From assembly GCA_028707065.1 (NCBI GenBank), contig JAQTUZ010000006.1:7367-71366 (forward strand): 64,000 nt of DNA. The letters are read 5' to 3'. Positions 719 through 52,200 of this stretch are shown here, piece after piece; the stretch's first letter is position 1, and the number at the start of each line of letters is the position of its first letter. A model generated the notes under the pieces. That model saw only the letters and a list, made by a program, of their open reading frames with translations, searched no databases and was not told where the DNA came from. The translations under genes were made by a program, and so were the position numbers. The DNA comes from Patescibacteria group bacterium (lineage in GTDB: Bacteria; Patescibacteriota; Patescibacteriia; Patescibacteriales; WJLG01).

Positions 719-772
719 AACACACCCCGTCCGCCTTTTGGGCGTCCACCCCTCTAAAATAGAGGGGGCTTT
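719..772. repeat. GC-rich palindromic dispersed element (acacaccccg...ccacccctc-loop-gagggg), intergenic copy
   Basis: aacacaccccgtccgccttttgggcgtccacccctctaaaatagaggggg; same two-module layout as 12 other copies in the window. Confidence 0.8.
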
Positions 773-778
773 TTTATT

Positions 779-919
779 TTTTGTCATCCTGAGCGCCGCG
801 CGAAGGATCTATTTTGCAGGAACTCCGAACTTCTTCGACAAAAATTTTTAAAATTATTATACGAACTTCTAGCACAATAGATCCTTCACTCCGCTACGCT
901 CCGTTCAGGATGACAAAAG
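779..919. repeat. Inverted-repeat (MITE-like) element with gtcatcctga-cg...gaaggatctatt arms
   Basis: Left arm 781-813 (ttgtcatcctgagcgccgcgcgaaggatctatt) is the imperfect reverse complement of right arm 877-917 (aatagatccttcactccgctacgctccgttcaggatgacaa). About 60 bp of AT-rich spacer lies between them. Confidence 0.65.
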
Positions 920-963
920 AAAAAACGTTGCGCAACAATTTAGCAATTTAACAATATAACAAT

Positions 964-3900
964 TTATTCCTCTCTCTTCTCTACTCTCTCCGTATCTGTC
1001 TCCTTCCCCCATCCCGGCTTGTCGCTCGCTTCGATTCTCCGGTCTTGATTGGAACGGCGGACATCGTCGCGGTCGCGCGGGCCTTCCTCGCCTTCGGAGC
1101 GCTTTTCGCCCAAAAGCTGGACGTCGAGGCAAAGGCCTTTTAATTCACGGACCAAAACATTAAATGATTCCGGCACATTAACTTTATTTATTTTTTCGCC
1201 TTTGATGATCGATTCATAAGCGGCAGAACGGCCGGGCACATCATCGGATTTGATCGTCAAAATTTCCTGCAAAGTATGCGCCGCGCCATAGCCTTCCAAG
1301 GCCCAGACTTCCATTTCTCCGAAACGCTGGCCGCCGAATTGCGCCTTGCCGCCGAGCGGCTGCTGGGTGATCAACGAGTACGGACCGATCGAGCGCTGGT
1401 GCATCTTGTCTTCCACCATATGGTTAAGCTTCAAGAGATATTTCATGCCGACGACAACTTTATTTTCATAGGCTTGTCCGGTTTTTCCGTCCAGAAGAGT
1501 GATCTTGCCGTCGATCGGCAAACCCGCCTTAGCCAATTCTTCGCGGATCTTTTCTTCGCCGATTCCGTTCAAGGCCGGAGTCGCAACTTTATAGCCAAGT
1601 TTTTTGCAGGCAAAACCCAGATGAACTTCCAAAGTCTGGCCCAAGTTCATTCTCGAAATAATGCCCAAAGGCGACAAAATAACGTCGATCGGCGTGCCGT
1701 CTTCCATATATGGCATATCTTCGGTGGCAACGACGCGGGAAATAACGCCTTTGTTTCCATAGCGGCCGGCCATCTTGTCGCCGACTTGGATCTTTCTTAA
1801 ATTGGCGACCGAAACTTGGATCGATTGAATCACGCCCGCGGCTAATTTATCGCCGGCTTCGCGGGAAAAATATTTGATATCGACGACCTTGCCGTGTTCG
1901 CCATGTTCCAAATACAAAGAAGAGTCGCGCACGTCTTTGGCCTTTTCGCCAAAAATGACACGGAGCAGCTTTTCTTCCGCCGACAATTCGGTTTCGCCTT
2001 TCGGAGTGATCTTGCCGACCAAAATATCGCCGGAAGAAACTTCGGCGCCAATGCGGATCACGCCGCTCTCATCCAAATTTTTCAATTTCTCTTCCGAGAT
2101 ATTAGGAATGTCGTTAGTGATCAATTCCGGACCAAGCTTGGTGTCGCGCACGTCAACCGTATAGTTCTCTATATAGATAGAGGTGAAGATATCATCGCGG
2201 ACCATTCGCTCGGATACGATCACCGCGTCTTCATAATTGAATCCTTCCCAAACCATGAAAGCGATCAAAACGTTCTTGCCCAAAGCCAATTCGCCCTTAT
2301 CAATGACCGGGCCGTCGCTCAATACCTGATGTTTATGGACATGGTCGCCCAAATCGACGATCGGTCGCTGATTGATGCAAGTCGAGGCGTTGGAGCGCAA
2401 AAATTTGGTCAATTCATAAACTTTATCTTCGCCTTTTTTATTGCGCACGATTATTTTGGCGGCATCGACAAAAGTGACTTCGCCGTCTTCCAGAGCGATG
2501 ATCACGTGGCCGGAATCGCGGGCGGCTCTTTCTTCCGCGCCGGTGCCGACGATCGGCGATTCGGCCGTCATCAGCGGTACGGCCTGGCGCTGCATGTTCG
2601 TGCCCATCAGGGCGCGCTGGCCGTCGTTATGTTCCATGAACGGGATCAAGGAAGTGGCGATGGAAATGATCTGGTTGGCGGCAACGCCGAAGAGATCGAC
2701 GTTTTTTACTTCATCGGTGGTCGGATTGCCGTATTTTCTCACTTCGCAAGTGGCCACCAGAAAATGGCCGTTCTCATCGATCGGCGTGGTCGCGGCGGTG
2801 GAAATGAATTTTTCTTCTTCAAAAGCGTCCAGATAAACGATCTCATCAGTCACGACCGGCACCACCGGGATTAAAACCTTAGCGTTGACTTTATCTTTGA
2901 TATGCTTAGCCGCTTCATGAGTGATCTTTTCGCCGGCCTTGATGATTACCTTGCCTTTTTTATTAGCCGGCACTTCAGACATCAAAATATGTTTTTTGCC
3001 GAGCGGCAATTCCGCGTCTTTTATTTCATAAACGTCTTCGCGGGTGATCTTGCCCGGAAGTTCTTTATTATTAATTTCCAAATCATGCCAGACCTGGCGA
3101 TACGGCGCTTCCAAAAAACCGTAAGAATTCAAACGGGCGAAACTGGCCAAGTGGCCGACCAAACCGATATTCGGGCCTTCGGGAGTGGCAATCGGACAAA
3201 TGCGGCCATAGTGAGTGGTGTGCACGTCGCGCACGTCAAATCCGGCGCGCTCGCGGGTCAAACCGCCCGGACCCATCGCCGACAATCTTCTTTTATGTTC
3301 AAGCTCGGCCAGCGGATTGGTCTGGTCCATAAATTGGGACAATTGCGAAGACATGAAGAATTCCTTGACAACCGAAATAACCGGACGAGCATTGATCAGC
3401 TTGTTCGGGGTTAAAGTATGGATATCAGCGGTGGACATCCGGTCTTTGACGATGCGCTCCATTCTGGCCAGACCGACGCGGAAACGATTCTGGATCAATT
3501 CGCCGATCGCTCTGACGCGGCGATTGGACAAGTGATCAATATCGTCTTCCGGTTCCTGAGTAATATTCAAACGGATGACTTCGCGGACGATGTTCACCAG
3601 ATCTTCCTTGCGCAAGACGCGGGTTTCCTTATTGACCGGCAAACCTTCGCCGAAACGGCGGTTCAATTTATAGCGGCCGACGCGGCCAAAATCGTAGCGG
3701 TCAAAACGGAAGAACATCGAATAGATCAAAGACTTGGCGTTTTCCGGATTGGCCAGGTCGCCGGGACGGATCTTTTTGTAAACTTCTTCCAAACCTTCTT
3801 CTTCGTTATGCGCCGCATCTTTGGCGATCGTCGCTTCGATAAAAGTCTGCTCCTCCTCGCCGCGGCGGACAATATCGATATCCTTGAACAAATTTATCAG

Positions 3901-4527
3901 CGATTCATCAGTCGCGTAGCCAAAAGCCCTCAATAAAGAAGTGAAAGCGACTTTTCTTTTGCGGTCGATGCGCACCCAGATGACTTTATTAACGTCAGTT
4001 TCGATTTCCAGCCAGGCGCCGCGATTCGGGATGATCTTCGCGCCATAATATTTCTTGCCCTTGATGAATTCCGCGGAAAAAATAACGCCGGCGGAACGGA
4101 TCAATTGCGAAACCACGACTCTTTCAATGCCATTGACGATGAACGTGCCGTTCTGGGTCATTAACGGAAAATCGCCCAAGAAAACTTCCTGCGCCGTGGT
4201 TTCCTTGGTGCGCTTGTTGACCAGGCGGGTTTTCACCCGCAACGGCGCTTCGTAAGTGATATTCTTGGCGCGCGATTGCTTTTCGTCGAATTTCGGCTCG
4301 TCCAGATAATATTCTTCGAAATAAAGTTCCAAGTCGCGGCCGATGAAATCAGTGATCGGCGAAATCTCATCGAACAGTTCGGCCAAACCTTCTTTGGCGA
4401 ACCATTTATAAGAATCCAGCTGCATCTCGATCAGATTCGGCATTTCCAGCACGCCCTTGCCGTGAGTGAAGAGGCGGCGGCCGGTACCGGTGACGATAAA
4501 TTCCTTAGGAACATTTTTGGTAGACAT
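964..4527 (-). CDS. rpoB: DNA-directed RNA polymerase subunit beta
   Basis: 1187-aa ORF with hallmark beta-subunit segments (NMQRQAVPL, GGQRFGEMEVWALEGYGAAHTLQE, GRYGNKGVISR). ATG at 4527. Ends in a charged tail of about 50 aa (GEKRSEGEEGPRDRDD...VEKREE). Confidence 0.98.
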   Translation of the reverse strand: MSTKNVPKEFIVTGTGRRLFTHGKGVLEMPNLIEMQLDSYKWFAKEGLAELFDEISPITDFIGRDLELYFEEYYLDEPKFDEKQSRAKNITYEAPLRVKTRLVNKRTKETTAQEVFLGDFPLMTQNGTFIVNGIERVVVSQLIRSAGVIFSAEFIKGKKYYGAKIIPNRGAWLEIETDVNKVIWVRIDRKRKVAFTSLLRAFGYATDESLINLFKDIDIVRRGEEEQTFIEATIAKDAAHNEEEGLEEVYKKIRPGDLANPENAKSLIYSMFFRFDRYDFGRVGRYKLNRRFGEGLPVNKETRVLRKEDLVNIVREVIRLNITQEPEDDIDHLSNRRVRAIGELIQNRFRVGLARMERIVKDRMSTADIHTLTPNKLINARPVISVVKEFFMSSQLSQFMDQTNPLAELEHKRRLSAMGPGGLTRERAGFDVRDVHTTHYGRICPIATPEGPNIGLVGHLASFARLNSYGFLEAPYRQVWHDLEINNKELPGKITREDVYEIKDAELPLGKKHILMSEVPANKKGKVIIKAGEKITHEAAKHIKDKVNAKVLIPVVPVVTDEIVYLDAFEEEKFISTAATTPIDENGHFLVATCEVRKYGNPTTDEVKNVDLFGVAANQIISIATSLIPFMEHNDGQRALMGTNMQRQAVPLMTAESPIVGTGAEERAARDSGHVIIALEDGEVTFVDAAKIIVRNKKGEDKVYELTKFLRSNASTCINQRPIVDLGDHVHKHQVLSDGPVIDKGELALGKNVLIAFMVWEGFNYEDAVIVSERMVRDDIFTSIYIENYTVDVRDTKLGPELITNDIPNISEEKLKNLDESGVIRIGAEVSSGDILVGKITPKGETELSAEEKLLRVIFGEKAKDVRDSSLYLEHGEHGKVVDIKYFSREAGDKLAAGVIQSIQVSVANLRKIQVGDKMAGRYGNKGVISRVVATEDMPYMEDGTPIDVILSPLGIISRMNLGQTLEVHLGFACKKLGYKVATPALNGIGEEKIREELAKAGLPIDGKITLLDGKTGQAYENKVVVGMKYLLKLNHMVEDKMHQRSIGPYSLITQQPLGGKAQFGGQRFGEMEVWALEGYGAAHTLQEILTIKSDDVPGRSAAYESIIKGEKINKVNVPESFNVLVRELKGLCLDVQLLGEKRSEGEEGPRDRDDVRRSNQDRRIEASDKPGWGKETDTERVEKREE

Positions 4528-5028: not shown

Positions 5029-5185
5029 GTCCCCTCCTCGCCTGTCCCGCAAAGCGATAGCGTGCGGGAGGAGGGGTGGCCGCGCCGCGCGGACGGGGTG
5101 TGTTAAAAGTCCCCTCCTCGGGAGGGGTGGCAGTCCGCCGCCTTGTCCGCCTCGGGCGGAGGACTGACGGGGTGGGTCTATTCCC
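5029..5185. repeat. Two tandem GC-rich palindromic elements (reverse orientation)
   Basis: 5029-5104 is cccctcc...ggaggggtggccgcgccgcgcggacggggtgtgtt, with a nested hairpin cccgca..tgcggg. 5109-5185 is cccctcctcgggaggggtgg...gacggggtgggtctattcc. ORFs 4996..5190(-) and 5143..5337(+) are built from these repeats. Confidence 0.8.
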
Positions 5186-5235
5186 GACAATATTATAAAA
5201 ATTTATTTATTCCACTTTTTTTTAAAAAAAAATAC

Positions 5236-6228
5236 TTACCAACTAACTCCTTGACGACTATTAATGTTCGCACAATTTGCCCAATAACAATTATTTTTGT
5301 CACAATAATCACCGGAACGTTCATTCTTTTCATTTGAAGCTAATTTTCTGAACGTCTTCACGTCAGCGCCCTTTAACACAGAGGCGCCGCAATATACGTT
5401 ATTTTTATCTATGGAAATATAATCATCAAAAATTTTAAAACTTTTAACATCAACACCTTGAATTTTAGAAATCTGAACGGGCTTATCTGGCGAAGTGACG
5501 ACGTAATAAACGTTATTTTTATCCTTAGAATATATAAAATCTATAATTTTAAACGAAGCAGGATCTGCCCCTAAAATTATAAGTCCCATATAGTAAGCAT
5601 TGTTTTTGTCCTTTGCGTAATGAAAATCTTCAGCAGCTTGACCATATTCCGTGTGTTTATACTTAATTGTTTCAAAAGTTTCAGAATCAGCTCCGGACAC
5701 ATTAACAAGAACGCCTGCAATTCGGAGCGGCAAAACCGGGGGAAGAGATAAAATTTTATCACCATCCTTAAAATACGTACAATTATAATTTTTAAAGGTT
5801 TCTGGATTAACATGCTCCCATTCAACATTCGGGTAAGTTGTACTAGCCAAATAAACACCATTCTTATCTTTAACAACACCGCTCCAAAAAGCAGTGTCGC
5901 GACCACATATCAATTCAAATGTCTCCACATCAAACTTGCCGAAATTGAAGCTAATGGTTTCACTGCCCGGACAAATATTTTTCCATAAAGCCCGGCAATT
6001 CTCTGTATCATAACAAAATCTTTCGTTCCAAGCATTTAGATTTGTATTGCAAGTACTAGTTTCTAAGTCTCTATAAAAATCATGGCCAGTCTCTACGGTT
6101 TTATTTGCAGTATCTTTCTTGTCGACACTTTGTTTAGCACTCGGCAATTTGACTGAACAAGCAGACAAAACGGTTATGCCGACTAACAGCAAAACAAAAC
6201 TGATAACAAGTAATACTATTTTTTTCAT
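5236..6228 (-). CDS. DKNYY-repeat lipoprotein
   Basis: Lipoprotein signal MKKIVLLVISFVLLLVGITVLSAC. Repeated DKN(N/G)(A/V)Y(Y/L/C)-type motifs (DKNGVYL, DKNNAYY, DKNNVYY, DKNNVYC) spaced about 30-60 aa apart, as in the DKNYY family. Confidence 0.75.
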   Translation of the reverse strand: MKKIVLLVISFVLLLVGITVLSACSVKLPSAKQSVDKKDTANKTVETGHDFYRDLETSTCNTNLNAWNERFCYDTENCRALWKNICPGSETISFNFGKFDVETFELICGRDTAFWSGVVKDKNGVYLASTTYPNVEWEHVNPETFKNYNCTYFKDGDKILSLPPVLPLRIAGVLVNVSGADSETFETIKYKHTEYGQAAEDFHYAKDKNNAYYMGLIILGADPASFKIIDFIYSKDKNNVYYVVTSPDKPVQISKIQGVDVKSFKIFDDYISIDKNNVYCGASVLKGADVKTFRKLASNEKNERSGDYCDKNNCYWANCANINSRQGVSW

Positions 6229-6232
6229 AATT

Positions 6233-7681
6233 TTATTTATTACCTCTAACCATATTTATCTCTTCTCTCGCCACCGTCCGGTCGTCCCACGGGATTTTTT
6301 CGCCGTTGGCCATCATCATTAATTGCTCGCTCCCCTTACCCGAAATCAAAATCAAATCACCTTCTTCGGCAATTTCGATTGCCTTGCGGATCGCGGCGCG
6401 GCGATCAGGGATTTTAAATAAATCGAAATTTAATTTTTTTCCTTCCTTCTCCGCTCCGATCGCAATCTGCTCGATAATCAATAACGGATCATCGTCATAA
6501 GGATCTTCGTTGGTGATAATTACGTAGTCAGCGCGCTTGCCAACTAACAATCCCAATTTTGGCCGACGCGCCACATCGCGTCCCCCGCCGGCCGAACCCA
6601 AAACATTAATAATCCGATTGTGCGGAAATTTTTCAATCGTATCGTAAAGCTTGGCTAAAGAATTCGGTTCGAAGGCATAGTCAACAATAACAGTAAAGGA
6701 CTGGCCCTCATCGATCTTTTCCATCCGGCCGGCCACGCCTTTGACGCTTTTTAATCCCTCTTTTATCTCATTGATATCTTTTACTGCCAGCCGCGCCACG
6801 CAAGCGGCGGCCATCGCATTGGCGGCATTAAATTCACCCAATAATGACAGCTGAATTTTTTCGCCAAAGGCCTGGAAGGAAACGCCTTCCGTTTCGGTTT
6901 TTATTTCGCTGTAATATTCAATCTGTAAATTTTCAGGCAAGTCTAATTCCCCTCTCGAGAGGGGTGCCGAGCCCGGCGAGGCGGGGTGTGTTAAAGAATC
7001 GACCATCTTAAATCCGATTTTTTCTTCCGCCCAGAAGGAAAGAAAATACGGCGCGTTCTCATCATCAAGATTAGCGACCACGGTTTTTTTGATCCGTTTC
7101 AAATCGGTTTTTTGCAGACAGCTGGCCTGGTTGCAGATTTTAAAAATATCATCAACATATTTTATCTTGCAGTCTTTCAAATGCTCGAATAATTTTCCCT
7201 TGGCTTTCTTGTAATTCTCAAAACCGCCGTGCGATTCGATGTGCTCGGGATATAAACCGGTAAAGATCAACCAGTCATAATTAATAAATTTGTGGCGGTA
7301 TTGGCGGATGCCTTCGGAAGTCGTTTCCACAATCGCGAACTGGCAGCCGTTCTTGACCATCTTCGCCAGCAAACCTTGCAGAAAAAATCGGCCGACCATG
7401 GTCATTCGCTTGTCATTCAACCATTCTTTTTTACCGTCATCAAAAACTGCCGTGGAAGATAAGCCAACTTTAAATCCGCACTCTTTCAAAGTTCTTAACA
7501 ATAAATAAGCTGTGGTGGTTTTGCCGATCGTCCCGGTAATACCGATCACCACCATTTTTTCCGACGGAAAACCGGCAAACAAAGCCGAACTCCAGCTTAA
7601 TAAATAATGATACGGCGACTGAAGCGCCTTGAAAATCTTTTTCGGGATCAATTTCTTGATGAATGAGAATATTTTATCCAT
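6233..7681 (-). CDS. Mur ligase family protein (MurE-like UDP-MurNAc-peptide ligase, short N-terminal domain)
   Basis: P-loop VVIGITGTIGKTTT, ETTSEG...RH segment, C-terminal NVLGSAGGGRD...ITNEDP typical of Mur ligases. Carries an in-frame GC-rich repeat insertion (THPASPGSAPLSRGELD). Confidence 0.8.
   Translation of the reverse strand: MDKIFSFIKKLIPKKIFKALQSPYHYLLSWSSALFAGFPSEKMVVIGITGTIGKTTTAYLLLRTLKECGFKVGLSSTAVFDDGKKEWLNDKRMTMVGRFFLQGLLAKMVKNGCQFAIVETTSEGIRQYRHKFINYDWLIFTGLYPEHIESHGGFENYKKAKGKLFEHLKDCKIKYVDDIFKICNQASCLQKTDLKRIKKTVVANLDDENAPYFLSFWAEEKIGFKMVDSLTHPASPGSAPLSRGELDLPENLQIEYYSEIKTETEGVSFQAFGEKIQLSLLGEFNAANAMAAACVARLAVKDINEIKEGLKSVKGVAGRMEKIDEGQSFTVIVDYAFEPNSLAKLYDTIEKFPHNRIINVLGSAGGGRDVARRPKLGLLVGKRADYVIITNEDPYDDDPLLIIEQIAIGAEKEGKKLNFDLFKIPDRRAAIRKAIEIAEEGDLILISGKGSEQLMMMANGEKIPWDDRTVAREEINMVRGNK
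6948..6992. repeat. GC-rich palindromic element inserted in frame in the Mur ligase CDS
   Basis: cccctctcgagaggggtgccgagcccggcgaggcggggtgtgtt; translated on the minus strand as THPASPGSAPLSRGE. Confidence 0.8.
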
Positions 7682-9497: not shown

Positions 9498-10517
9498 CTA
9501 TTTTATTATTTCCACAATCCCCCGATTAGCATCAACAATAACCACGTCCCCGTCGCGCAAAACTTTCGTGGCGATCTTGGTGCCGATGACGCAGGGCTTT
9601 TTCATTTCCCGGGCAATGATGGCCGCGTGGCAGGTAACCCCTCCTTCATCGGTGACAAAGGCGGCGGCCAGCTTCATGGCCGGAACAAAATCCGGCGTAG
9701 TCATGAAAGAAACGATAACTTCGCCTTTTTTAAATTCATTAATCTGATCCTTTCTTCTTAAAATTCTGACCACACCCCTGACATTGCCGCCAAAACCGGT
9801 TTGGCCCTTGATGATTTTCAGATTCTTATCAACTTTATCGATTTTAATAATATAATTTTTATTCTTTCGGGCAAATTCTTTCAAGCTGATCAGCGCGGCA
9901 TATTTTTCTCCGACCACGACCATATTCTTGCGCCGCCGCGCTAATTTTTTAAGCGAGGGCGGTTTTGAAATCTCCCGGCGCAAAATCAAATTTTCATAGC
10001 CTTTTAATTCCGGATGCAAATAGATCAAGCTATTCCGGATCAATCGATCGCTTTTTTCGAAATAAACGTCGGTTTCACGCACCGCTAAAGCCAGCTTTCG
10101 TAAATTTTTCGGCGTCCGCTCGTCCACGGCCGATAAATAATAAATTGTAAAAACCAAAACATCTTCAAAAAATCTATCTACATAGCTTTTCAACGCCGCG
10201 GAACTCTTCAACGCCGATTTTTGCCATTGTTTTTCAAAATATTTTAAATTTTTTTGATGCCGCTTAATAAAGCCCACTAAAAAATTCTTATCTTTTTTAT
10301 TGATGGCAAGCAATTTGTCAGTCGCCTCTTTCAGCGCTTCGGGACTTTCCCAAATCTCCACCGCCCCATCATTAATATAATCAAACATCGGCGGATTAAT
10401 CGGTTTTTTAATACCCAAAAATTTCCGCGGCGCCTTAGCCAATGCCTCATACCAGCCTTGCTGCGTAACCAAAGCCGAATCGCGCGTTAAACTTTTTTCA
10501 AAATGTATTTTTTTCAT
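9498..10517 (-). CDS. Phosphohistidine swivel-domain protein, short class (339 aa)
   Basis: C-terminus GEVIVSFMTTPDFVPAMKLAAAFVTDEGGVTCHAAIIAREMKKPCVIGTKIATKVLRDGD matches the PEP-utilizing enzyme mobile domain (PF00391-type) with its catalytic His. Confidence 0.85.
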   Translation of the reverse strand: MKKIHFEKSLTRDSALVTQQGWYEALAKAPRKFLGIKKPINPPMFDYINDGAVEIWESPEALKEATDKLLAINKKDKNFLVGFIKRHQKNLKYFEKQWQKSALKSSAALKSYVDRFFEDVLVFTIYYLSAVDERTPKNLRKLALAVRETDVYFEKSDRLIRNSLIYLHPELKGYENLILRREISKPPSLKKLARRRKNMVVVGEKYAALISLKEFARKNKNYIIKIDKVDKNLKIIKGQTGFGGNVRGVVRILRRKDQINEFKKGEVIVSFMTTPDFVPAMKLAAAFVTDEGGVTCHAAIIAREMKKPCVIGTKIATKVLRDGDVVIVDANRGIVEIIK

Positions 10518-10521
10518 AATT

Positions 10522-12030
10522 CTATGTTCTTTTAATTATCCTTACCCAGCCATGATTAGCATTCACTTCGACTTGGTCGCCATCATGCAAAACTTTGGTA
10601 GCGATCTTCGTGCCGATGATGCAGGGAATCCCCAGCTCGCGGGAAACGATTGCCGCATGGCAAGTTACTCCGCCTTCGTCAGTGACGATCGCCGCGGCCT
10701 TTTTCATCGCCGGAATATAATCGGGCCGGGTCATTACGGCAACCAATATATCTCCCTTATTTATTTTGCCAATCTCTTTGGCGCTTTTCAATATTTTTAC
10801 CGGGCCAGTTGCTTTGCCGGTGGAGGCGGACAAGCCGCGGAAATCATCGACCGCCGTCAGCTTGATACTACCCAAGATCACTTTCTTCACCTGATCGGCT
10901 TCCCGACCGCTCAATATTTCAAACCCTTCTTTATCAAAATAAATCACGCTGTTCTTTTCTCTGGCCTTTAAAAATTTCTTATTAGGTTTAGCTTGAAAAA
11001 TTCGTGAAAGCTCCGGCGGAGTAAAATATTTTATATCCGCCAAAGAAATGTCGATGCGGCGGCAAATCTCCGCCAAGATCAAACTGAAATAATGAATCGT
11101 CCAATAAGTTGATTTTTTGCGCTCATCCTGCCAATAAGTGAAATCCTCGGAAATTTTCAATAAATCTTTCAACTCGCCTTTTATTTTTAAAATTTTCATC
11201 AGCCGGCTTTTGTTTTTCTTGTTTTTCGCGGGCAATTCTTCGATCCGTTTAATTTCCTGGCTTAAATCTAGTTTAGCCGCTAATAATTTCTCGACCTCCT
11301 GCTTAAAATGATTGACGCTTAAGACATAGGAATCAACGTAATTATTTCGGGTCCAAAAATACTTTTTCTGATATGCCTTTAATAATTCACCGGCATTTTT
11401 CCGGTATTTTTTTATCTGCCAAGCCATCTTCATCAACTCGACCTCGGCCTCATTGATAAAAGAGAGATGCGTCGGCGCCGTCAGCGCGGAAAAAACTTCA
11501 GTGAACCTTTCTCTATCTTTTATTTTAGATTTATCATAAATTTTCCTGATCTGGTCGGCGATCAATTGATCGGTGCCCAAAGCAAAACCGTCGATCAAAG
11601 AACTGGAGCTGAAACGATTATAGGAAATTTGCGCAAAATCGTCATGCAGCTTGATCAATTCTTGATCGCTTAATTTTTTCAGATTAGTTTTTTCAACCGC
11701 TAAACATTTGTCATCAAACAAATCTTCATCTTTTTTCCAGAGCTTGATGAAATCGGCGCTTAAATTGGGATTTTTCTTGGCTGCTTTGATGATCGAGGTA
11801 TAGACTTTTTTGATATCTTCCATTTCAATATACCAGTCAGCCTTGCCCTGATCGAAAAAACAATAATGAACGGTAAAATCGCCGCCCATTTTTCTCTTGG
11901 TGTGCGTATCGATCTCGGCCGCGCCGATGAAATACATAAAATACGGCGAGCCGTCGAACCGCTGATGGTACCATTCTTTGCCCTGCCATTTTTTCAATTT
12001 TCTCTTGATCAACCCCTTAACGTACTTCAT
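10522..12030 (-). CDS. Phosphohistidine swivel-domain protein, long class (502 aa)
   Basis: C-terminus VTDEGGVTCHAAIVSRELGIPCIIGT. N-domain motifs LTAPTHLSFINEAEVEL, KKYFWTRNNY, YWQDERK shared with the other long paralogs. Confidence 0.85.
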   Translation of the reverse strand: MKYVKGLIKRKLKKWQGKEWYHQRFDGSPYFMYFIGAAEIDTHTKRKMGGDFTVHYCFFDQGKADWYIEMEDIKKVYTSIIKAAKKNPNLSADFIKLWKKDEDLFDDKCLAVEKTNLKKLSDQELIKLHDDFAQISYNRFSSSSLIDGFALGTDQLIADQIRKIYDKSKIKDRERFTEVFSALTAPTHLSFINEAEVELMKMAWQIKKYRKNAGELLKAYQKKYFWTRNNYVDSYVLSVNHFKQEVEKLLAAKLDLSQEIKRIEELPAKNKKNKSRLMKILKIKGELKDLLKISEDFTYWQDERKKSTYWTIHYFSLILAEICRRIDISLADIKYFTPPELSRIFQAKPNKKFLKAREKNSVIYFDKEGFEILSGREADQVKKVILGSIKLTAVDDFRGLSASTGKATGPVKILKSAKEIGKINKGDILVAVMTRPDYIPAMKKAAAIVTDEGGVTCHAAIVSRELGIPCIIGTKIATKVLHDGDQVEVNANHGWVRIIKRT

Positions 12031-12035
12031 ATATT

Positions 12036-13109
12036 TTATGATTTGATTATTTTTACAACCCCCTTATCCGCATCGACTTCCACCAGGTCGCCGTCGCGCA
12101 AAACTTTGGTGGCGATTTTGGTGCTCATCACCGCCGGAATTTTAAATTCCCGGGCAATGACCGCGACGTGGGACAAAATCCCGCCTTCATCGGTAATTAT
12201 CGCCAAAAATTTCCGCAACAGCGGAGTGTCTTGCGGCCGGGTGATATTGGTCACCAAAATCTGTCCCGGCTTGACGCTTTTGACGCCATGAAAAGATTTA
12301 TAGACCCGGCCCCTGACTTTTCCGGGATAAGCAGTCGTGCCTTTGATAAGATTAACCTTAAAATTGTCAGGCCAAAAATGCCGGCGCAGAACGGCAATAT
12401 CTCTTTGGTCACTTCCCGACATATCCTCATTATTATAAAACAAATAAACATACCCTGATCTCCTTTTCGCCAACTCCGCTAATTTTATTCGCGACAATTT
12501 TTTTGCTTTCAGGAATGTTTGAAATTCTTTCAAGGTTAAATATCTTAATAAATCTCCGTCAAAACTCAAAACTTTTCCGATTTGATCAACGCCTTTGATG
12601 ATCAGCGGCTCAATTTCCGGATAAATAAGGTTAGCGACCGCGTCCCTGTCTTTGGCGATCGAATCGGCCAGCTTGCCCATTTTTTTCGCTCGCTCCGGAT
12701 CATCTTTAACATATCTCATGATCGAATTGTAAAAGCCGATCGAGCAGAGAACTTCCGGGTAAACCTTCGTTATCATTTCCAGAGTTTTAAAATAATCTTT
12801 TTTTCTCTTTTCCCTGACAATGGCGAGTTTATTTTTCCGGAAGCGGATTTTAAATTTATTATTTAAGCCGGCTAAAGCGGAAATTTTCACCTTCCGGTTG
12901 AATAATTTCCCCACTTTATTTTCATTAATTAAAAAATTCACCCGATTGCTTTCGCCGATACTGCCGATCGTTCCGTAAGAATAGCCGGCCATTTCTTGAA
13001 GAAGTTTGGTGTAGCCCAAAAACAGGCAGCTAACCGAAAATAGCGGCAGTTTTCTGGAACTGGCGTGAACCAATCCCGCAGCTTGAATGATTTTTAGATA
13101 TTTATTCAT
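12036..13109 (-). CDS. Phosphohistidine swivel-domain protein, short class (357 aa), most diverged swivel
   Basis: C-terminus ITDEGGILSHVAVIAREFKIPAVMSTKIATKVLRDGDLVEVD. Confidence 0.8.
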   Translation of the reverse strand: MNKYLKIIQAAGLVHASSRKLPLFSVSCLFLGYTKLLQEMAGYSYGTIGSIGESNRVNFLINENKVGKLFNRKVKISALAGLNNKFKIRFRKNKLAIVREKRKKDYFKTLEMITKVYPEVLCSIGFYNSIMRYVKDDPERAKKMGKLADSIAKDRDAVANLIYPEIEPLIIKGVDQIGKVLSFDGDLLRYLTLKEFQTFLKAKKLSRIKLAELAKRRSGYVYLFYNNEDMSGSDQRDIAVLRRHFWPDNFKVNLIKGTTAYPGKVRGRVYKSFHGVKSVKPGQILVTNITRPQDTPLLRKFLAIITDEGGILSHVAVIAREFKIPAVMSTKIATKVLRDGDLVEVDADKGVVKIIKS

Positions 13110-13111
13110 CT

Positions 13112-35486: not shown

Positions 35487-35490
35487 AATC

Positions 35491-36915: not shown

Positions 36916-36922
36916 ACCAAAA

Positions 36923-42148: not shown

Positions 42149-43216
42149 TTATTTAATAAGTCTGCGTATTTTTCTAAAAATTTTGTAGGCGGAATATTTT
42201 TGCTTATCGAAAATAACATCAAAGGTTCCGGGATAATTCATTTCCTGGCCGGCAAAGCCGCGTTTGAAACGCGTCACGCCCGGCCATTTCTTTTCATCAA
42301 TGCCGGAGAAATCATAAAATTTACACCCGGCGGCTTTGGCAAGCTTGATCATTTCCCATTGCAGGAGATGCGGCGCCATCAATTCCCGGTTTTCATTGGC
42401 CGAGGCGCCATGGAGATAGACGGCCGTATCGCCGAAAAAACTAAAAATTCCTGCACAGATAATTTTTCCCTCAAATTCTCCCCCTTCGCCAAGGCTACGG
42501 GGGACAAAGCCAAAAAATAATTTTATCAATCCGCCATTGAGAGAAAGCATCTTTTGATAATACTCCTTGCTATGCAAACGGAAGCCGTCTCGGTTGACCG
42601 TAGCTGACATTAAATTCCAAAATTTATCAAATTCTTCGGCCATAACACACCCCGGCGCCGCGGCGGCGCCACCCCTCTCGAGAGGGGACTTTTCCGCTTC
42701 CCGGATTTTAACGCCTTTTTTTTCGGCTAAACGGATATTATAACGAGTCTTCTGATGCATATTTTTAAGCAAATCGTCTTCAGATAAATTCAAATCCAAG
42801 ATGATAGTTTTACTGACCTGGATATCAATGGTTTTGAAAATTGGAAATTGGAAATTGGAAATTGGAAATTGTTCTAGCGGTTCGAAACGCAAAAAAATAA
42901 CTTTTTCCTTCTGGGCAATTCTTTCTATCTCTGCAAAGAAAAAATTAATCATCTCTGCTCCCTGCTCTCTGCTCTCCGCTCTGATCACCGGGCCGCGCGG
43001 ACAATAAAAATAATTCATTCCTAAAGGCATTGTTTTTTTTACCAAAGTTGCCGCCGCGATCAGCTCGCCATTTTCCTCCACACCGAGGCGGATAATTTTT
43101 CCTTCAACTTTCTCCTGGAATTCTCCCCATTCCCACGATTGCAAAAATTCGGCATGCGGTTGCGCTCCGAGAAAATCATTGAGTCTTTGTTTATCTTTTA
43201 TTTCAACTATGATCAT
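42149..43216 (-). CDS. FemAB-family peptidoglycan interpeptide-bridge peptidyltransferase
   Basis: FLQSWEWGEFQEK, MNYFYCPRGPV, KTRYNIRLAEKKGV, YLHGASANENRELMAPHLLQWEMIKLAKAAGCKFYDFSGI. Carries two in-frame repeat insertions. Confidence 0.85.
   Translation of the reverse strand: MIIVEIKDKQRLNDFLGAQPHAEFLQSWEWGEFQEKVEGKIIRLGVEENGELIAAATLVKKTMPLGMNYFYCPRGPVIRAESREQGAEMINFFFAEIERIAQKEKVIFLRFEPLEQFPISNFQFPIFKTIDIQVSKTIILDLNLSEDDLLKNMHQKTRYNIRLAEKKGVKIREAEKSPLERGGAAAAPGCVMAEEFDKFWNLMSATVNRDGFRLHSKEYYQKMLSLNGGLIKLFFGFVPRSLGEGGEFEGKIICAGIFSFFGDTAVYLHGASANENRELMAPHLLQWEMIKLAKAAGCKFYDFSGIDEKKWPGVTRFKRGFAGQEMNYPGTFDVIFDKQKYSAYKIFRKIRRLIK
42645..42689. repeat. GC-rich palindromic element inserted in frame in the FemAB gene
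   Basis: acacaccccggcgccgcggcggcgccacccctctcgagagggga; translated as SPLERGGAAAAPGCV. Confidence 0.8.
42835..42870. repeat. AT-rich heptamer tandem repeat (ggaaatt x4-5) in frame in the FemAB gene
   Basis: gaaaattggaaattggaaattggaaattggaaatt; translated as FPISNFQFPIFK. Confidence 0.8.
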
Positions 43217-43237: not shown

Positions 43238-43282
43238 ACCCTCCCCGTCGCCGAGGCGGCGCCACCCCTCCCCGGGAGGGGA
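43238..43282. repeat. GC-rich palindromic element, intergenic
   Basis: ggaataaaccctccccgtcgccgaggcggcgccacccctccccgggagggg. Confidence 0.75.
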
Positions 43283-43869: not shown

Positions 43870-43969
43870 AATGTAAGACTAATCTACGAATACATACTAA
43901 TAAAACGAATGAGTGTTTAGGAGGCATTCGTTATATTAGTATGTATTCGTATGACATTAGTATTACAAT
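43870..43969. repeat. Palindromic element of about 100 bp, copy A
   Basis: ...tacgaatacatactaat...cgaatgagtgtttaggaggcattcgttatattagtatgtattcgtatgacattagtattacaat. Self-complementary arms of about 40 bp; near-identical copy at 55699-55797. Confidence 0.8.
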
Positions 43970-43970: not shown

Positions 43971-44912
43971 TTATCTTTTAATCCTGATAAACCCAGCGAT
44001 GGGGATAATTTTGATTCCCTTCTTTTCCAGTTCATCGCAAAAAAGATTTAAGCCCAAAGAGTCGGACGACATGTGGCCGGCAATAACAACATTGATATGA
44101 TTTTTTTCCGCTTCTTCGCGGTGCTTTTCCGAAAGATGCATGCCGATGACCGTGCCAATCCCCGCTTGCGCCATTTTTTCAAAAATTTCCTTGGCGCCCT
44201 CGGTGCCGCCGGTGAATTCGCTGACCGCGATCTTGCCGCAATGATTTTCGGGAGTGCCGGCAAAAAGCGTCGGACCGGCATTTAATTTCGCCGCTTCTTT
44301 ATATTCGGGAATTTCTTTGATCAAATCCAGAAGGTCGCCGACGAATTCCGGCTTTTTCTTCTCGATCAAATCGACGATAAAGCGCGCCCCCAGATTATCG
44401 CAAGGCGTATGGATGCACATATAATCCAAATTCAGCGCTGAAGCAAAATCTACCCAGCGATTATAATTGCCGGAAATTACGCTGCGGCCGACTTCGGAAA
44501 TGCGCGGCTTGATCAATTTTTCGGCGATATTGATCGGTACGCCATAATCAGCCAAAACCTCGGATTGCAGATCCATCACCGAATGCAGATCGGCCAACGC
44601 CTTGCCTTCCGGGTGATGGGCAAAAAGCAGATCAATATCCCCTCTTTCTTTGGCTAAAAGCATTTCCGAGCCTTCCAAATCCACGCCGACCATGATTTTT
44701 TTAATCTGCTTGGAATTTCCAAAAACCAAAATCCGGCTGTCCGAATATGGGTTGCTTAACTTTTCCGCATCAAATTCCGCCTTTTTGTCCTTATCTAATT
44801 TTCCGTATTTCTTCTTGGCGCGCTCTAAATACGCCGCAACTTTCTTCTCCCCTCTTAAATCGCTCTTAATGCCGAGCTTAATCCCTAAATCGAAAATTTC
44901 TTTAATCGTCAT
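43971..44912 (-). CDS. Nif3-like dinuclear metal centre protein (GTP cyclohydrolase 1 type 2 homolog family)
   Basis: DLLFAHHPEG motif, C-terminal VVIAGHMSSD, 313 aa. Confidence 0.8.
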   Translation of the reverse strand: MTIKEIFDLGIKLGIKSDLRGEKKVAAYLERAKKKYGKLDKDKKAEFDAEKLSNPYSDSRILVFGNSKQIKKIMVGVDLEGSEMLLAKERGDIDLLFAHHPEGKALADLHSVMDLQSEVLADYGVPINIAEKLIKPRISEVGRSVISGNYNRWVDFASALNLDYMCIHTPCDNLGARFIVDLIEKKKPEFVGDLLDLIKEIPEYKEAAKLNAGPTLFAGTPENHCGKIAVSEFTGGTEGAKEIFEKMAQAGIGTVIGMHLSEKHREEAEKNHINVVIAGHMSSDSLGLNLFCDELEKKGIKIIPIAGFIRIKR

Positions 44913-44956
44913 AAAATTAATTACAAATTATTAATTATAAATTTTTTCTGGGATAA

Positions 44957-45017
44957 GTCCCCTCTTGGGAGGGGTGCCGATCCGCCCCGGGAGGAGAGGC
45001 GGGGTGGGTCTATTCCT
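44957..45017. repeat. GC-rich palindromic element (reverse orientation)
   Basis: cccctcttgggaggggtgccgatccgccccgggaggagaggcggggtgggtctattcc. Confidence 0.75.
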
Positions 45018-45048
45018 GACCTTATTAAAAATATTTACCAATAATGTC

Positions 45049-45106
45049 GGGAATATACCCTCCCCGTCTCGCGCGGCGCGAGCCACCCCTCCCGTGGAGG
45101 GGACTT
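45049..45106. repeat. GC-rich palindromic element (forward orientation), facing the 44957 copy
   Basis: gggaatataccctccccgtctcgcgcggcgcgagccacccctcccgtggagggga. Confidence 0.75.
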
Positions 45107-45109: not shown

Positions 45110-46015
45110 TTATTTCATTCCTCTCAACGCGGCGATACGGTCGGCGACCGGCGGGTGGGTTAAGAATAATTTGGTGAAAAAACCGACATGGCCGTCCTGG
45201 CCCTTTAAAGGTGAAATGATATATAGATGCGCGGTGGCGCGGTTGGCAACTTCGAGAGGTTCAGTGTCGGCGGAAATTTTTTCCAAGGCGCGGATCAGGC
45301 CTTCGGGATAGCGGGTCAACAAGGCGCCATCGGCATCGGCTTTGAATTCTCGCTTGCGGGAAATGGCCATTTGCATCAAGGAGGCGAAGATCGGCGCGAG
45401 AATCGCCAAAACAATGGCGACGATCAACATTATCAACTGTAATTGTCCGCCTTCATCATTGCTGCGGCGACGGCGTCCACCAAAAAAACTCCAGCGCATA
45501 AACCAATCGGCCAACAAGACAACCACGCCGACCAAAACCGTGACGACCGTGGAAAGCAAAATGTCGCGGTTGCCGATGTGCGAAAGCTCATGGGCGATCA
45601 CGCCTTCCAACTCGATCCTTTCCAATTTCTGCAAAAGGCCGGTGGTGACGGCGATGACCGCGTGCTGGGGATCGCGGCCGGTGGCAAAAGCGTTCGGCGC
45701 CGAATCATTAATCACGTAAATTTTCGGCACCGGCAGTCCGGCCGTAATACAAAGATTTTCCACCAAATGATAAAGTTCGCGATTTAGATCATGATCAATT
45801 TCATGCGCGCTCGACATAGCCAAAACAATTTTGTCCGACCACCAATAACTGATGAATGAAGAAATTATGCTAAAGCCGACGGCGATATACAAAATCTCCG
45901 GCGCGTTCATCGCCCGCGAAAAAACCCAGCCGATGCCGATGACCGCGATGAAAAATATGGTCATCAGCAGCCAAGTCTTGCGCGCGTTGGAATCGGAATC
46001 GGTGTATAGTGTCAT
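45110..46015 (-). CDS. htpX: Zinc metalloprotease HtpX (M48 family)
   Basis: HELSHIGNRD (HExxH), multiple TM segments, C-terminal THPPVADRIAAL. Confidence 0.92.
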   Translation of the reverse strand: MTLYTDSDSNARKTWLLMTIFFIAVIGIGWVFSRAMNAPEILYIAVGFSIISSFISYWWSDKIVLAMSSAHEIDHDLNRELYHLVENLCITAGLPVPKIYVINDSAPNAFATGRDPQHAVIAVTTGLLQKLERIELEGVIAHELSHIGNRDILLSTVVTVLVGVVVLLADWFMRWSFFGGRRRRSNDEGGQLQLIMLIVAIVLAILAPIFASLMQMAISRKREFKADADGALLTRYPEGLIRALEKISADTEPLEVANRATAHLYIISPLKGQDGHVGFFTKLFLTHPPVADRIAALRGMK

Positions 46016-47964: not shown

Positions 47965-48037
47965 ATTTTGATACTTATTATCTTTACAGCTTTGCCCAAG
48001 AATTGAGCAAAGCGAAAAGAGAATAACTTATATTGAA

Positions 48038-48135
48038 CTCCACCCCGCCTTACCGGGCTCGGCACCCCTCCCGCGGAGGGGAATTTTTAACACACTCCGT
48101 CCGGCGCGGCGCCGTCCACCCCTCTCTAGAGGGGA
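48038..48135. repeat. Two tandem GC-rich palindromic elements
   Basis: 48038-48084 is ctccaccccgccttaccgggctcggcacccctcccgcggagggg. 48088-48135 is aacacactccgtccggcgcggcgccgtccacccctctctagagggg. Confidence 0.8.
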
Positions 48136-48201
48136 ATTAAATTATCAGCTTTACTGCTTTGCCCAAAGATTGAGCAAAGCGAAAAGACAATAATTAAAAG
48201 T

Positions 48202-49061: not shown

Positions 49062-49176
49062 TAAATTTTGTAATTTTTAATTTTTAAAGAATTTTTAAAG
49101 TCTAATTTTTAAAAATTAAAAATTTAGATTTCTTTAAAAATTATAAAATTAAAAATTTAAAAATTATCTATTATAT
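49062..49176. repeat. AT-rich imperfect long hairpin (aaattt/taaaaatt repeats)
   Basis: Left arm taatttttaatttttaaagaatttttaaagtctaattttt pairs imperfectly with right arm aaaaattaaaaatttagatttctttaaaaattataaaatta. Confidence 0.6.
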
Positions 49177-49181
49177 GTTAA

Positions 49182-49292
49182 TTATTTTTTATCTTCTTTT
49201 TCTTTTTTCGCATCTTCAACTACTCCGGCGATCACCGCGCCGATAACCAGCAAAACAAAAACAATAATGCCTATTCCTATCATATTTTTCAT
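49182..49292 (-). CDS. Possible 36-aa single-TM peptide
   Basis: MKNMIGIGIIVFVLLVIGAVIAGVVEDAKKEKEDKK. Its ATG overlaps the ileS TGA stop (ATGA). Not in the ORF track because it is too short. Confidence 0.35.
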   Translation of the reverse strand: MKNMIGIGIIVFVLLVIGAVIAGVVEDAKKEKEDKK

Positions 49293-52200
49293 ATTTTTTT
49301 AATTTTTATAATCAATTTCTCGCCGTTGGCTTCGACCTCTTTTCCGCCTTCGGCCGCGCCGATGATTATCTTTTCCGCCAAAACATCTTTTTTCAAATCT
49401 TTGGCAAACATTTTCAGGGCATTTTTTACCGCCTCGCTTTCAGTCGCGATGGTCAAGGCAATCCGATCATTGATCGTCAGTTTGGTGTTCTTGCGCTCGG
49501 CGTTTATAAAGCGAACTAGTTCGCGCTTCAAGCCCTCGGCGATTAACTCCGGCGTCATCGCCGTATCTAACTCGACCGACAAATCACCTTCGCCAACCGT
49601 ACTCGTCACTTTTTTTACATTCAATTCATCTTTGATCAATTCAACGTATTCATTTCTTAATTCATAATTCTTAATTCTTAATTCAGTCAAGGGTTGACGC
49701 ACCTTAATGCCGGCCTCATCGCGCTTGGCCAAACCAAGTTCAACGACTTTGCGCGCCAAAGCCATATCGGCAACCACCCCCATCCCCTCCTTGGAAAGGA
49801 GGGGTGCGCTAGGCCACTCTTCAAGATGCACGGACATTTCCGGATCGGCAAAATTATTGCCCGTGACTTTCTGCCACAATTCTTCAGCGATGAACGGCGT
49901 GAACGGCGCCATCACTTTAGCCAAGTCAGTCAATACTAATCTAGTCGTTGCTAGTGCTGAATCTCCATCGGATAACACACCCCGTCGCTCGCTGTCGCTC
50001 GCGCCACCCCTCTCTAGAGGGGACTCATTATTTTTGAAACGATCGCGGCTGCGGCGCAAATACCAGGTGGAAAAATCATCGATGAATAAAGCGATCGGGC
50101 GCGTTGCGCTCGGCAAATCATATTTTTTCATCCCCTCGCTCACTTCGGCGACTAGCTGATTTAATCTGGCAATAATCCACTTATCCAAAACATTTTTTGG
50201 TTCAAAGTCAGAACCACCCCCAGACCCCTCCTTGGAAAGGAGGGGGGCGCCAGCATACATTTCATAGAATTTATAAACATTCCAGAGGATCATATTTACT
50301 TTGCGCAAACAATCGGATACGCCTTTTTCGGAAAAATTCAGATTCTCGGCAGTCATCACCGGCGAAGTCAAAAGATAATAGCGCAAAGCGTCGGCGCCGT
50401 ATTTCGCGAATAATTCGGTTGGATCGGGATAATTTTGCAAGCGCTTGGACATTTTCTTGCCGTCCTCGGCCAAAACAATTCCATTGACGATGACATTTTT
50501 ATAAGCAAAGTTATTCTTGATACCGGTGGCCATCACGTGCAGATAATAAAACCAAGCTCGGGTCTGGTCTACGCCTTCAGCGATAAACTCAGCCGGAAAA
50601 TTCTGCTCAAATCTTTCTTTGTTCTCAAAAGGATAATGCATTTGCGCATAAGGCATCGAACCGGAATCGAACCAGGTATCCAAAACATCAGGCACGCGCT
50701 TCATCTTCTCTCCGCAGATATCGCATTTTAAAATAATTTTATCGACCGAATCTTTATGCAGATCAATTTCTTTTTTGGCGGCATTATTGACATAAACGAT
50801 TTTAAATTCGCTTTTTCTGGTGTGGTCCGGGCCGTACAGCGACAAACCGGATTCGTGCTTGCTCCGGCCTCTTAAAATGCTGATCAAATCGTCGATCGGA
50901 TCAGAATGCGAAATAATTAAGATCGTTTTGCCTTTATTTTTTTCCAAAACCGGCAAGAGCCATTGATACATCCGCTCGCCGACTTCGGTTTGCGTTTCGC
51001 CCGTACCGCCGCAACGAATATCCATTACTTCTTCAGGCGTTGCAGCCAGATATTTTTGGCGGATTTTGTCATGAGCGGCCAATTCTTTGCGATCCTTATT
51101 TTCCCAAGCGCCCAAATTTATTTCTCGCAGGGAATCAACTATCTCAAAATCAATCCCCAGGCTTTGACAGATTAGCTCGGCAGTTTCCCTGGTGCGGGTC
51201 ACGGGAGAAGCATAAGCAACAATCTTTTTTTCCTGTCCGGCTATTTCTTTGGTTAATTTTTCTATCGTTGACGCTACCTGTGTCTTTCCTTTTTCTGTCA
51301 AATGATTATCTTCTTTAAGCGCAGTAATAACGCCGGCGGCATTGCTCTCGGCCTCGCCATGACGGATTAAAATCAATTTGGTCAACTGGCCGTCGGCGGC
51401 CTGATATAATTCTTCCAGCGAACCTAAAACTTTTTTGGCGCCACATTGGCATTCCCAAATCGGGAGAACCGAAGCCCAAAAACGCTGGCGGGAAATCGAC
51501 CAATCGCGCGCGCCCTCGAGCCAATTGCCGAATCGGCCCTTTTTAATATGCTCCGGCGACCAGTTGATCGCTTCGGCCAATTCCAGCATCCGCGGTTTCA
51601 TCTGGGTTATCTTTACGAACCAGGACGAAGTCGCGTAATTGATCAGCGGCGTTTCACAGCGCCAGCAATGCGGATAACTATGCTCGAATTTTTCTTTGGA
51701 GAACAATAAATTCTTCGCGGCCAAATATTTAATTATCGCCACATCAGTCGCTTGCACATCGTCTTTCGGTTTCACATGCAGACCGGCAAACTCGCCCATT
51801 TCCGGTTTGAAAGTTCCATCCATCGCGACATGCTGGATGAACGGCAGATTATATTCGCGGCCCAAGATCATATCGTCCTCGCCAAAAGCCGGTGCGATAT
51901 GCACTACGCCGGTGCCGTCTTCGGTCGTGACAAAATCGCCGTGATAAATCTTCCAGCCATTATCGCGATTCACCAATTTTTCATCTTTGGCATAATAATC
52001 AAACAACGGCTTATATTTTTTGCCGATTAATTTCTCGCCTTTAAATTCTTTAATTATTTTATATTCTTTGCCCTCAAAAATCTTTATTGCCCGCTCTTTC
52101 GCCAAAATATATTTTTCAATTTGTAATTTGTCATTTGTAATTTGTAATTCAATATAGTCAATTTCCTTCCCGACTGCGAGCGCAACATTTCCCGGCAGCG

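Follow-up and report, generated by a model that had tools for sequence, protein, structure and literature searches.

Rickettsia palindromic elements (RPEs) insert in frame into unrelated genes, including essential ones, and are tolerated where the insert is compatible with the protein fold (PMC10969869). Here we describe a repeat with comparable behavior in a 64-kb stretch of DNA from a Patescibacteria group bacterium (assembly GCA_028707065.1, contig JAQTUZ010000006.1, positions 7,367 to 71,366; the whole of this stretch is called the window below), together with its relation to genes for DUF559 proteins. Like the RPEs, it is a palindromic repeat found in frame in unrelated genes, with empty sites in relatives; five copies lie in three genes of the window and many more in orthologs. 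The differences from the RPEs are as follows: (i) RPEs are ~100-150 bp long, whereas the present element measures ~35-80 nt and consists of two hairpins with conserved single-stranded boxes, (ii) RPEs occur only in Rickettsia and close relatives, whereas the present element occurs in >20 phyla and in viral contigs, (iii) RPEs are not comparably GC-rich relative to their host, and (iv) RPEs have no known enzyme partner, whereas the present element flanks DUF559 genes. Given a host in Patescibacteria and the differences in length and layout, the relation to RPEs appears to be an analogy of behavior and not membership.

The closest parallel in organization is provided by the repetitive extragenic palindromic (REP) sequences and REPINs linked to REP-associated tyrosine transposases (RAYTs). 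Both systems contain short hairpins as singlets and inverted doublets, both place inverted copies around a small enzyme gene, and in both orphans predominate. The flanked gene, however, encodes here a DUF559 protein (Vsr-like PD-(D/E)XK) and not a Y1 HUH enzyme (TnpA_REP), and REPs are extragenic and species-specific, whereas the present element also lies inside genes and is almost unchanged between distant phyla. With the homing endonuclease I-Bth0305I (PDB 3R3P, Vsr-like catalytic domain) the system shares a selfish gene of small size that encodes a nuclease and sits in a particular sequence environment, a match of the DUF559 profile to 3R3P, and the presence of cassettes inside other genes; in contrast to it, there is no intron or intein, the DUF559 cassette is read through in frame, and the structured inverted-repeat flanks also exist in hundreds of gene-less copies, unlike classical homing sites. 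[quoted passage not shown] The GC clusters and double-hairpin elements of fungal mitochondria are GC-rich, palindromic, and mobile in an AT-richer genome, and sometimes lie in frame in coding regions; being organellar, lineage-specific, and without a DUF559 partner, they offer a conceptual parallel only. The element thus seems closest to RPEs in behavior and to REP/REPIN-RAYT systems in organization while lacking the defining features of both; the probability that it stands for a selfish element of a new, nuclease-repeat class is substantial.

Our main conclusion, to which we assign a probability of about 70%, is that the element is a mobile two-hairpin repeat that in its complete form flanks a DUF559 gene and that has been inserted both between genes and into permissive protein loops, with the DUF559 nuclease as its probable partner in copying. 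The window sequences are copies of a mobile, structured two-hairpin DNA repeat. A search with the regular expression CCCCTC..GAGGGG in both orientations identified exactly the 13 sites proposed by an earlier reading of this DNA made from the sequence alone (the sequence-only reading; Table 1). With at most one mismatch, the motif CCACCCCTC matches the window 18 times versus 6.6 expected, a count reached by none of 100 shuffles, and ACACACCCCG matches it nine times versus 1.3 expected; the composite pattern CACCCCG-N8-38-CACCCCTC-N3-10-GAGGGG has seven matches versus 0.00 expected in shuffles. The parts follow one another in a fixed order: a 5' box CACCCCG, hairpin 1, hairpin 2 of the form CACCCCTC(C)-loop-(G)GAGGGG, and an AAT/T-rich tail. 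The box has the general form (A)AC(A/C)CACCCCG and reads (A)ACACACCCCG or GGAATA(g/t)ACCC(a/t)CCCCG in the window, where hairpin 2 and the tail read (C/G)CA-CCCCTC(C)-loop-(G)GAGGGG followed by A(A/C)TT. The hairpin 1 region is GC-rich, 13-38 nt long, and self-complementary in 10 of the 11 full copies, and its sequence is almost never the same in two copies; in copy 12 a direct repeat takes its place. The remaining two of the 13 copies (49774 and 50213) belong to a short subtype, which lacks hairpin 1 and has only 2-3 nt between the box CCACCCCC and hairpin 2. The sequence-only reading had correctly recognized the box, the ccacccctc-type core, and the short subtype, whereas its spacer of 10-25 nt is in fact the variable hairpin of 13-38 nt; its GC content for the genome agrees with that of the window (~0.44), and the ~70 percent ascribed to the element gives way to a range of 0.54-0.70.

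A covariance model, R1, was built from 17 copies from other phyla with no window sequence included, and its seed alignment was kept gap-free since MAFFT alone misaligned the variable loops. R1 recovers all 13 window copies in the right orientation with E-values from 1e-11 to 0.2, 11 of them at or below 0.01; the weakest matches are those at 49769 (E 0.04) and 5030 (E 0.2). The sole additional match in the window, a weak one at 25948, was rejected as an element on inspection. In the matches from the genomes listed, 57% of the hairpin 1 regions, which the search pattern left unspecified, form a stem of 4 bp or more, versus 10% of shuffles. Among 116 R1 matches from independent loci, 97.5% of pair cells hold standard pairs versus 56-74% in slid controls, and double changes were observed at nine pairs versus 3.5 in shuffles, none of 500 shuffles reaching nine. 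Hairpin 1 is a covarying hairpin and not a plain spacer.

The family is not lineage-specific but occurs in many bacterial phyla and in viral contigs. The exact composite pattern was found at no fewer than 120 loci in GTDB genomes (one per species) from >20 phyla. The matches listed include isolates of Bacteroidota (Chryseobacterium, Flavobacterium, Hymenobacter, Rufibacter, Robertkochia, and Solirubrum) and metagenome-assembled genomes of Cyanobacteria, Acidobacteriota, Verrucomicrobiota, Planctomycetota, Chlamydiota, Proteobacteria (beta, gamma, and zeta), Firmicutes, Fibrobacterota, Nitrospinota, Lentisphaerota, Chloroflexota, Patescibacteria, and others. The flanks a(a/c)C...GAGGGGAAT(T), which lie outside the search pattern, are common to the 155 matches listed, and the unspecified middle of the foreign copies is occupied by hairpins of very different sequence (e.g. 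GCCCTTCGGGC, GGCGCTTCGCGCC, and GTCAAAAATTCTTTGAATTTTTGC). The composite pattern is also carried by at least 120 viral stretches in IMG/VR, often several times per contig. Gene-less doublets and single copies far outnumber the copies that flank DUF559. The short subtype is a widespread form and not a local decay product, and elsewhere it flanks DUF559 genes as well. At gathering thresholds, no Rfam family matched either the window or any of 15 loci from other phyla, and E-value mode yielded only generic hairpin (miRNA-model) matches far below threshold; a tRNA/tmRNA scan found none; and a BLAST search of the consensus element against plasmids gave no match, probably an effect of sensitivity or low complexity. 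No description of the repeat family was found in open-access papers and preprints, in agreement with the sequence-only reading, to which no description of this family was known.

All-against-all clustering of the open reading frames (ORFs) at the 120 genome loci listed revealed one specific family near the element, DUF559 (PF04480), which is present at eight of the 120 loci and always touches the element. The remaining clusters are generic (ABC ATPases, response regulators, kinases, and short-chain dehydrogenases); no transposase or other specific family was found beside the element in this clustering, and no HUH gene. The DUF559 gene encodes a Vsr-like PD-(D/E)XK endonuclease of 120-150 amino acids, with invariant acidic and histidine residues including D53, E64, D66, and H70 in six aligned sequences. 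The DUF559 profile matches PDB 3HRL (E 1e-30) and 3R3P, annotated as 'Mobile intron protein' (E 1e-4); VSR, DUF559, and the group I intron homing endonuclease 3R3P have been grouped together (PMC3424549), and DUF559 proteins are enriched among predicted targets of programmed inversion, that is, among genes flanked by inverted repeats (PMC9881135). Neither NCBIfam nor PADLOC names a function for the DUF559 protein, and open-access papers and preprints on DUF559 contained none linking it to repeats or mobility.

The DUF559 gene is bracketed by element copies at two loci (L071 and L058), and in two further cases a copy-bracketed DUF559 domain lies in frame inside a larger restriction protein: a Bacteroidota-type MmeI/Eco57I-like protein (L114, 684-3539) and a Type ISP restriction protein (L023, 2508-4175). 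These two restriction proteins also hold extra tandem 'TEKIQNA' repeats. The association was then quantified with R1 in an independent sample of 80 metagenomic DUF559 loci (41-64% identity to the query; 355 kb). Of 120 full R1 matches, 95 lie no more than 200 nt from the ends of the DUF559 ORFs, which corresponds to a density of 2.54 per kb at ORF ends versus 0.079 per kb elsewhere, a 32-fold difference. An adjacent copy was found in 47 of the 80 loci, with copies on both sides in 25. The copies are polar: 37 upstream copies are on the minus strand and seven on the plus strand, whereas 36 downstream copies are on the plus strand and 15 on the minus strand, and both DUF559 ORFs found in viral loci have the same '- ORF +' arrangement. 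Because of this polarity, the canonical unit can be written as [<- arm] DUF559 [arm ->], with the CACCCCG boxes on the side of the gene and hairpin 2 and the AAT outside. Both full and short subtypes serve as arms, and downstream copies often supply the last codons of the DUF559 ORF. Arms within one unit are 76% identical, versus 63% between units, a contrast reached in none of 5000 permutations.

In the window, copies 7 and 8 form an inverted doublet (44957-45102) whose 5' boxes face each other. Since the arms are arranged exactly as in DUF559 units, around a spacer of 32 nt, the doublet looks like a gene-less (MITE-like) unit in which the spacer sits where DUF559 lies in full units.

The five intragenic copies lie in three genes assigned by Pfam: a Mur ligase gene (Mur_ligase_M/C, 6233-7681, minus strand), a FemAB gene (42149-43216, minus strand), and the gene for a class I tRNA synthetase, isoleucyl-tRNA synthetase (IleRS; 49289-52951, minus strand). 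All five are in frame and free of stop codons, one in the sense orientation (Mur ligase) and four in antisense (FemAB and IleRS), which bears out the earlier statements that the copies in these genes keep the frame and that both orientations are translatable. Copy 4 encodes THPASPGSAPLSRGE (residues 231-245 of the Mur ligase) and copy 5 encodes SPLERGGAAAAPGCV (residues 177-191 of FemAB), and the three IleRS copies encode GAPLLSKEGSGGG (901-913), SPLERGGASDSERRGVL (977-993), and PSAPLLSKEGMGVV (1047-1060). The antisense copies read SPLERGG... or ..APLLSKEG... Gene-borne copies in the window were seen only with lengths of 3n and without stops; judged by this conservation of frame, they would be read through as loops of 13-17 residues rich in Pro, Gly, Arg, and Ser. 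In an AlphaFold2 model of FemAB (mean predicted local distance difference test score, pLDDT, 85; predicted template modeling score 0.85), the insert falls within a coil of low confidence that links strand 170-173 with helix 193-210, with pLDDT below 50 for residues 180-185. The FemAB insert is thus predicted to occupy a disordered surface loop, the location that the sequence-only reading had expected. Within its catalytic region, the IleRS carries an inserted domain of the histidine phosphatase type (His_Phos_1; residues 526-697), a feature common to its closest relatives; other Patescibacteria IleRS entries list a NUDIX domain (PF00293), alone or with His_Phos_1.

Comparison with orthologs revealed that the insertion sites are polymorphic among relatives and that the same protein loops have been invaded repeatedly. 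Among 28 IleRS orthologs with 57-83% identity, the 17 residues at positions 977-993 are present in three, namely the window protein and two others, and missing from the rest, including the 80%-identical P0002. At the DNA level, the site of copy 12 shows a clean difference of 51 nt (17 codons) from two related loci (L201 and L202) that matches the element. The other two IleRS sites contain in relatives nothing, the short type, the full type in other frames, or other peptides (CHSERSVS..., SFPRRRES..., and NYELRITN...) that resemble products of unrelated repeats. As relatives carry different subtypes, frames, or nothing at the same sites, the IleRS loops have been hit repeatedly and independently. 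The FemAB insert is shared only with a 78%-identical ortholog, R1 detecting it at the same codon position in L201; copy 5 is missing from most orthologs, and eight others have different copies in the same loop. In the Mur ligase, the segment belongs to a hypervariable loop; none of 29 representatives has it, but as these are at most ~50% identical the test is a weaker one. The RPE-like in-frame insertion postulated from the sequence is borne out by these presence/absence patterns, and the segments are not the shared ancestral sequence that would have spoken against it. The same kind of insert is carried by independent assemblies from other samples (L201 and L202/L203), hence the inserts are not assembly artefacts, the other objection that had been raised.

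An intergenic empty site was also identified. On either side of copies 9 and 10 (48038-48134) stands a 52-nt sequence, its two copies being 88% identical; this sequence occurs once and without the element in the syntenic spacer of L201 (14580-14640). The duplicated sequence holds its own hairpin, GCTTTGC..GCAAAGC, and lies just upstream of the start codon of a gene for a 642-residue protein. Because L201 has a single copy and no element, copies 9 and 10 were inserted with a target duplication of ~52 bp.

A possible scheme of multiplication starts from the DUF559 nuclease, which would cut the repeat itself, its immediate vicinity, or structured targets, and would thereby start copying. In a homing-like variant, a gene-less doublet would be cut and then repaired from a gene-bearing unit, with the arms as homology; in an alternative variant, a staggered cut would be followed by fill-in. 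Orphan copies would be non-autonomous derivatives, either moved in trans or left behind. The homing-like variant fits the architecture of the unit and the relation to a homing endonuclease, and staggered cuts directed by structure, with fill-in, are hinted at by the 52-bp duplication, whose target contains a hairpin. In its widest form the proposal is tentative, and we put its chances somewhat short of even: DUF559 would be the nuclease of an unrecognised class of selfish elements with ~40-nt structured inverted arms, which would extend across most bacterial phyla and viruses, exist as hundreds of orphans per genome, and remodel protein loops, including those in essential genes of the minimal genomes of the candidate phyla radiation (CPR). 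The arms would be both recognition site and homology for homing-like copying, and the long duplication of a hairpin target would reflect structure-directed staggered cleavage.

Several observations weigh against DUF559 as the partner of the repeat. No DUF559 ORF is present in the 64-kb window, and a protein database search for DUF559 in Patescibacteria gave top matches mainly from Flavobacterium and established no case in Patescibacteria; for both reasons the partnership is unproven in this genome. Most copies everywhere are orphans. An adjacent R1 match is lacking in 33 of the 80 metagenomic DUF559 loci, and all 80 represent one subfamily, the query having been built from element-associated genes. 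Even within a single unit the arms have unlike hairpins 1, which is odd for simple copy-and-paste, and no short target-site duplication is visible at the site of copy 12 or around DUF559 units. The homing-like scheme leaves the arrival of single arms at new sites, such as protein loops, unaccounted for; to our knowledge, PD-(D/E)XK nucleases cut DNA and have no known strand-joining activity, so that the chemistry of insertion is unexplained. Some of these points would suit a repeat that is mobile but for which DUF559 is only a passenger or a favoured landing site, the mover being another enzyme acting in trans (for example HUH/RAYT-like or an IS200-type transposase) or host template switching at hairpins. 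The missing DUF559 gene in the window and in CPR, the vast excess of orphans over flanked DUF559 genes, and the unlike hairpins 1 within units are all in line with such a mover, and a duplication as long as 52 bp suits repair- or replication-based insertion better than classical transposition. We nevertheless regard this explanation as unlikely, as no transposase or other specific family accompanies the element at the 120 loci listed, the polarity of the arms around DUF559 is strong and reproducible in genomes, metagenomes, and viral contigs, the arms co-vary within units, and the whole DUF559 cassette has been found inserted in other genes.

The mobile-repeat reading has also to be weighed against two explanations that dispense with mobility. 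Host-serving signals kept by selection, such as intrinsic terminators or mRNA-stabilising hairpins used in the manner of REPs and bacterial interspersed mosaic elements (BIMEs), would account for the strongly conserved pairing, for the several intergenic copies just after stop codons, and for copies 1, 6, and 8, which end with GAGGGG and a T-run in the + orientation of the element. The T-runs of these three copies, however, are on the strand opposite to the neighbouring genes, and relative to the transcribed strand both orientations are represented among the intergenic copies. Such signals would also hardly be expected as five copies inside essential ORFs, at sites present or absent among close relatives, with the same sequence in >20 phyla and viral contigs and no matching Rfam family, and we consider this explanation very improbable. 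It retains one point against mobility as the whole account, namely that several intergenic copies end in a T-run at gene 3' ends and some may also terminate transcription; a secondary use of some copies as terminators is possible. The notion that the intragenic segments are ancient protein sequence resembling palindromes, or assembly artefacts, deserves practically no credence: nothing speaks for it beyond the FemAB insert shared by two relatives, whereas most orthologs lack the segments, neighbouring orthologs differ in subtype, frame, and orientation at the same loop, R1, built from copies of other phyla, recognizes the insert DNA as the element, and the inserts are present in independent assemblies.

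Table 1. Element copies and associated repeats in the window (coordinates from its first nucleotide; bit scores and E-values for R1)
Feature	Position	Strand	Type and context	R1 score
Copy 1	720..767	+	full; intergenic, downstream of rpoB (964-4527, -); T-run after	25.4 bits, E 1e-5
Copy 2	5029..5103	-	full, 34 nt inserted in the loop of an enlarged hairpin 2; tandem partner of copy 3; intergenic, downstream of DKNYY gene (5236-6228, -)	
Copy 3	5109..5187	-	box variant GGAATAG-ACCCACCCCG; long nested hairpin 1	41.6 bits
Copy 4	6949..6991	-	in frame, sense, Mur ligase gene	36.6 bits
Copy 5	42645..42687	+	in frame, antisense, FemAB gene	38.1 bits
Copy 6	43238..43281	+	box variant ACCCTCCCCG; intergenic, between ruvA stop and femAB start	36.5 bits
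Copy 7	44957..45016	-	left arm of inverted doublet (<- ->) with copy 8	37.2 bits
Doublet spacer	45017..45048	.	32 nt, AT-rich, between copies 7 and 8	
Copy 8	45049..45102	+	right doublet arm; abuts stop of M48 peptidase gene (45110-46015, -)	36.6 bits
Target duplication copy A	47975..48026	.	52 nt, own hairpin inside; left of copies 9 and 10	
Copy 9	48038..48081	+	full, intergenic	45.6 bits, E 1e-11
Copy 10	48088..48134	+	full, box ACACACTCCG; in tandem with copy 9	15.9 bits
Target duplication copy B	48142..48193	.	52 nt; right of copies 9 and 10	
Copy 11	49774..49804	+	short, CCACCCCCAT-CCCCTCC-loop-GGAGGGG; in frame, IleRS gene	13.1 bits
Copy 12	49975..50022	+	full; in frame, IleRS gene; 51 nt (17 codons) missing from relatives	
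Copy 13	50213..50245	+	short; in frame, IleRS gene; also in 80%-identical ortholog P0002	17.9 bits
AT-rich short repeats	42818-42870 (in FemAB), 52109-52151 (in IleRS), 44901-44945, 56316-56418, 59903-59945, 60984-61060			

Other repeats were observed in the same window and its relatives. A second, unrelated nested palindromic element (TTTTTTGTCATCCTGAGCGCCGCGCGAAGGATC ... GATCCTTCACTCCGC...TTCAGGATGACAAAAG) occupies 772-925, directly beside copy 1. Repeats of this type also occur after lemA in L201 (14467-14578), and in the same locus (17555-18035) they flank a small ORF for a GIY-YIG nuclease, in the spacer between the M48 and NIF3 genes where the window has the doublet; this looks like a parallel nuclease-repeat partnership. 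Translated repeats of the 772-925 type (CHSERSVSVVEEPLK) were found in IleRS loops of the orthologs P0003, P0004, P0010, and P0013. Short AT-rich tandem or interspersed repeats (GGAAATT and AATTACAAATT) are present in intergenic spacers and inside ORFs, and IleRS orthologs contain NYELRITNYEL / LQITN-type peptides in the same variable loops, which suggests a third family that is also read through in frame. Two intergenic spacers (55701-55795 and 43885-43951) hold mutually related AT-rich, near-perfect inverted repeats (TACGAATACATACTAAT... arms, 96-97% complementary). Apart from the repeats, the minus strand carries 15 paralogous genes for proteins of ~340-520 residues in three tandem blocks (9498-14584, 21647-27603, and 29449-38383), an unusual expansion for a small genome. 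They share a conserved 3' end of ~249 nt, and each of the five scanned with Pfam has a C-terminal PEP-utilising-enzyme mobile domain (PF00391), the N-terminal parts giving no Pfam match.

The occurrence of a nearly identical element of ~40 nt in >20 phyla and in viral contigs implies either frequent transfer across phyla or a strongly constrained recognition of DNA by protein. Recognition of these repeats, which yield many spurious short ORFs and odd peptides (such as PLERGG, PLSRGE, and PPKEGN), would improve annotation, and the repeats may contribute to the fragmentation of metagenome assemblies. If the proposed role of DUF559 is true, a huge domain family whose only name so far is 'endonuclease domain-containing protein' would gain a biological function, and a third kind of partnership between enzyme and repeat would join IS/MITE and RAYT/REP. 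The element also offers a far broader case than that of Rickettsia of selfish DNA writing new protein loops, including loops in the aminoacyl-tRNA synthetases and cell-wall enzymes of ultra-small CPR bacteria.

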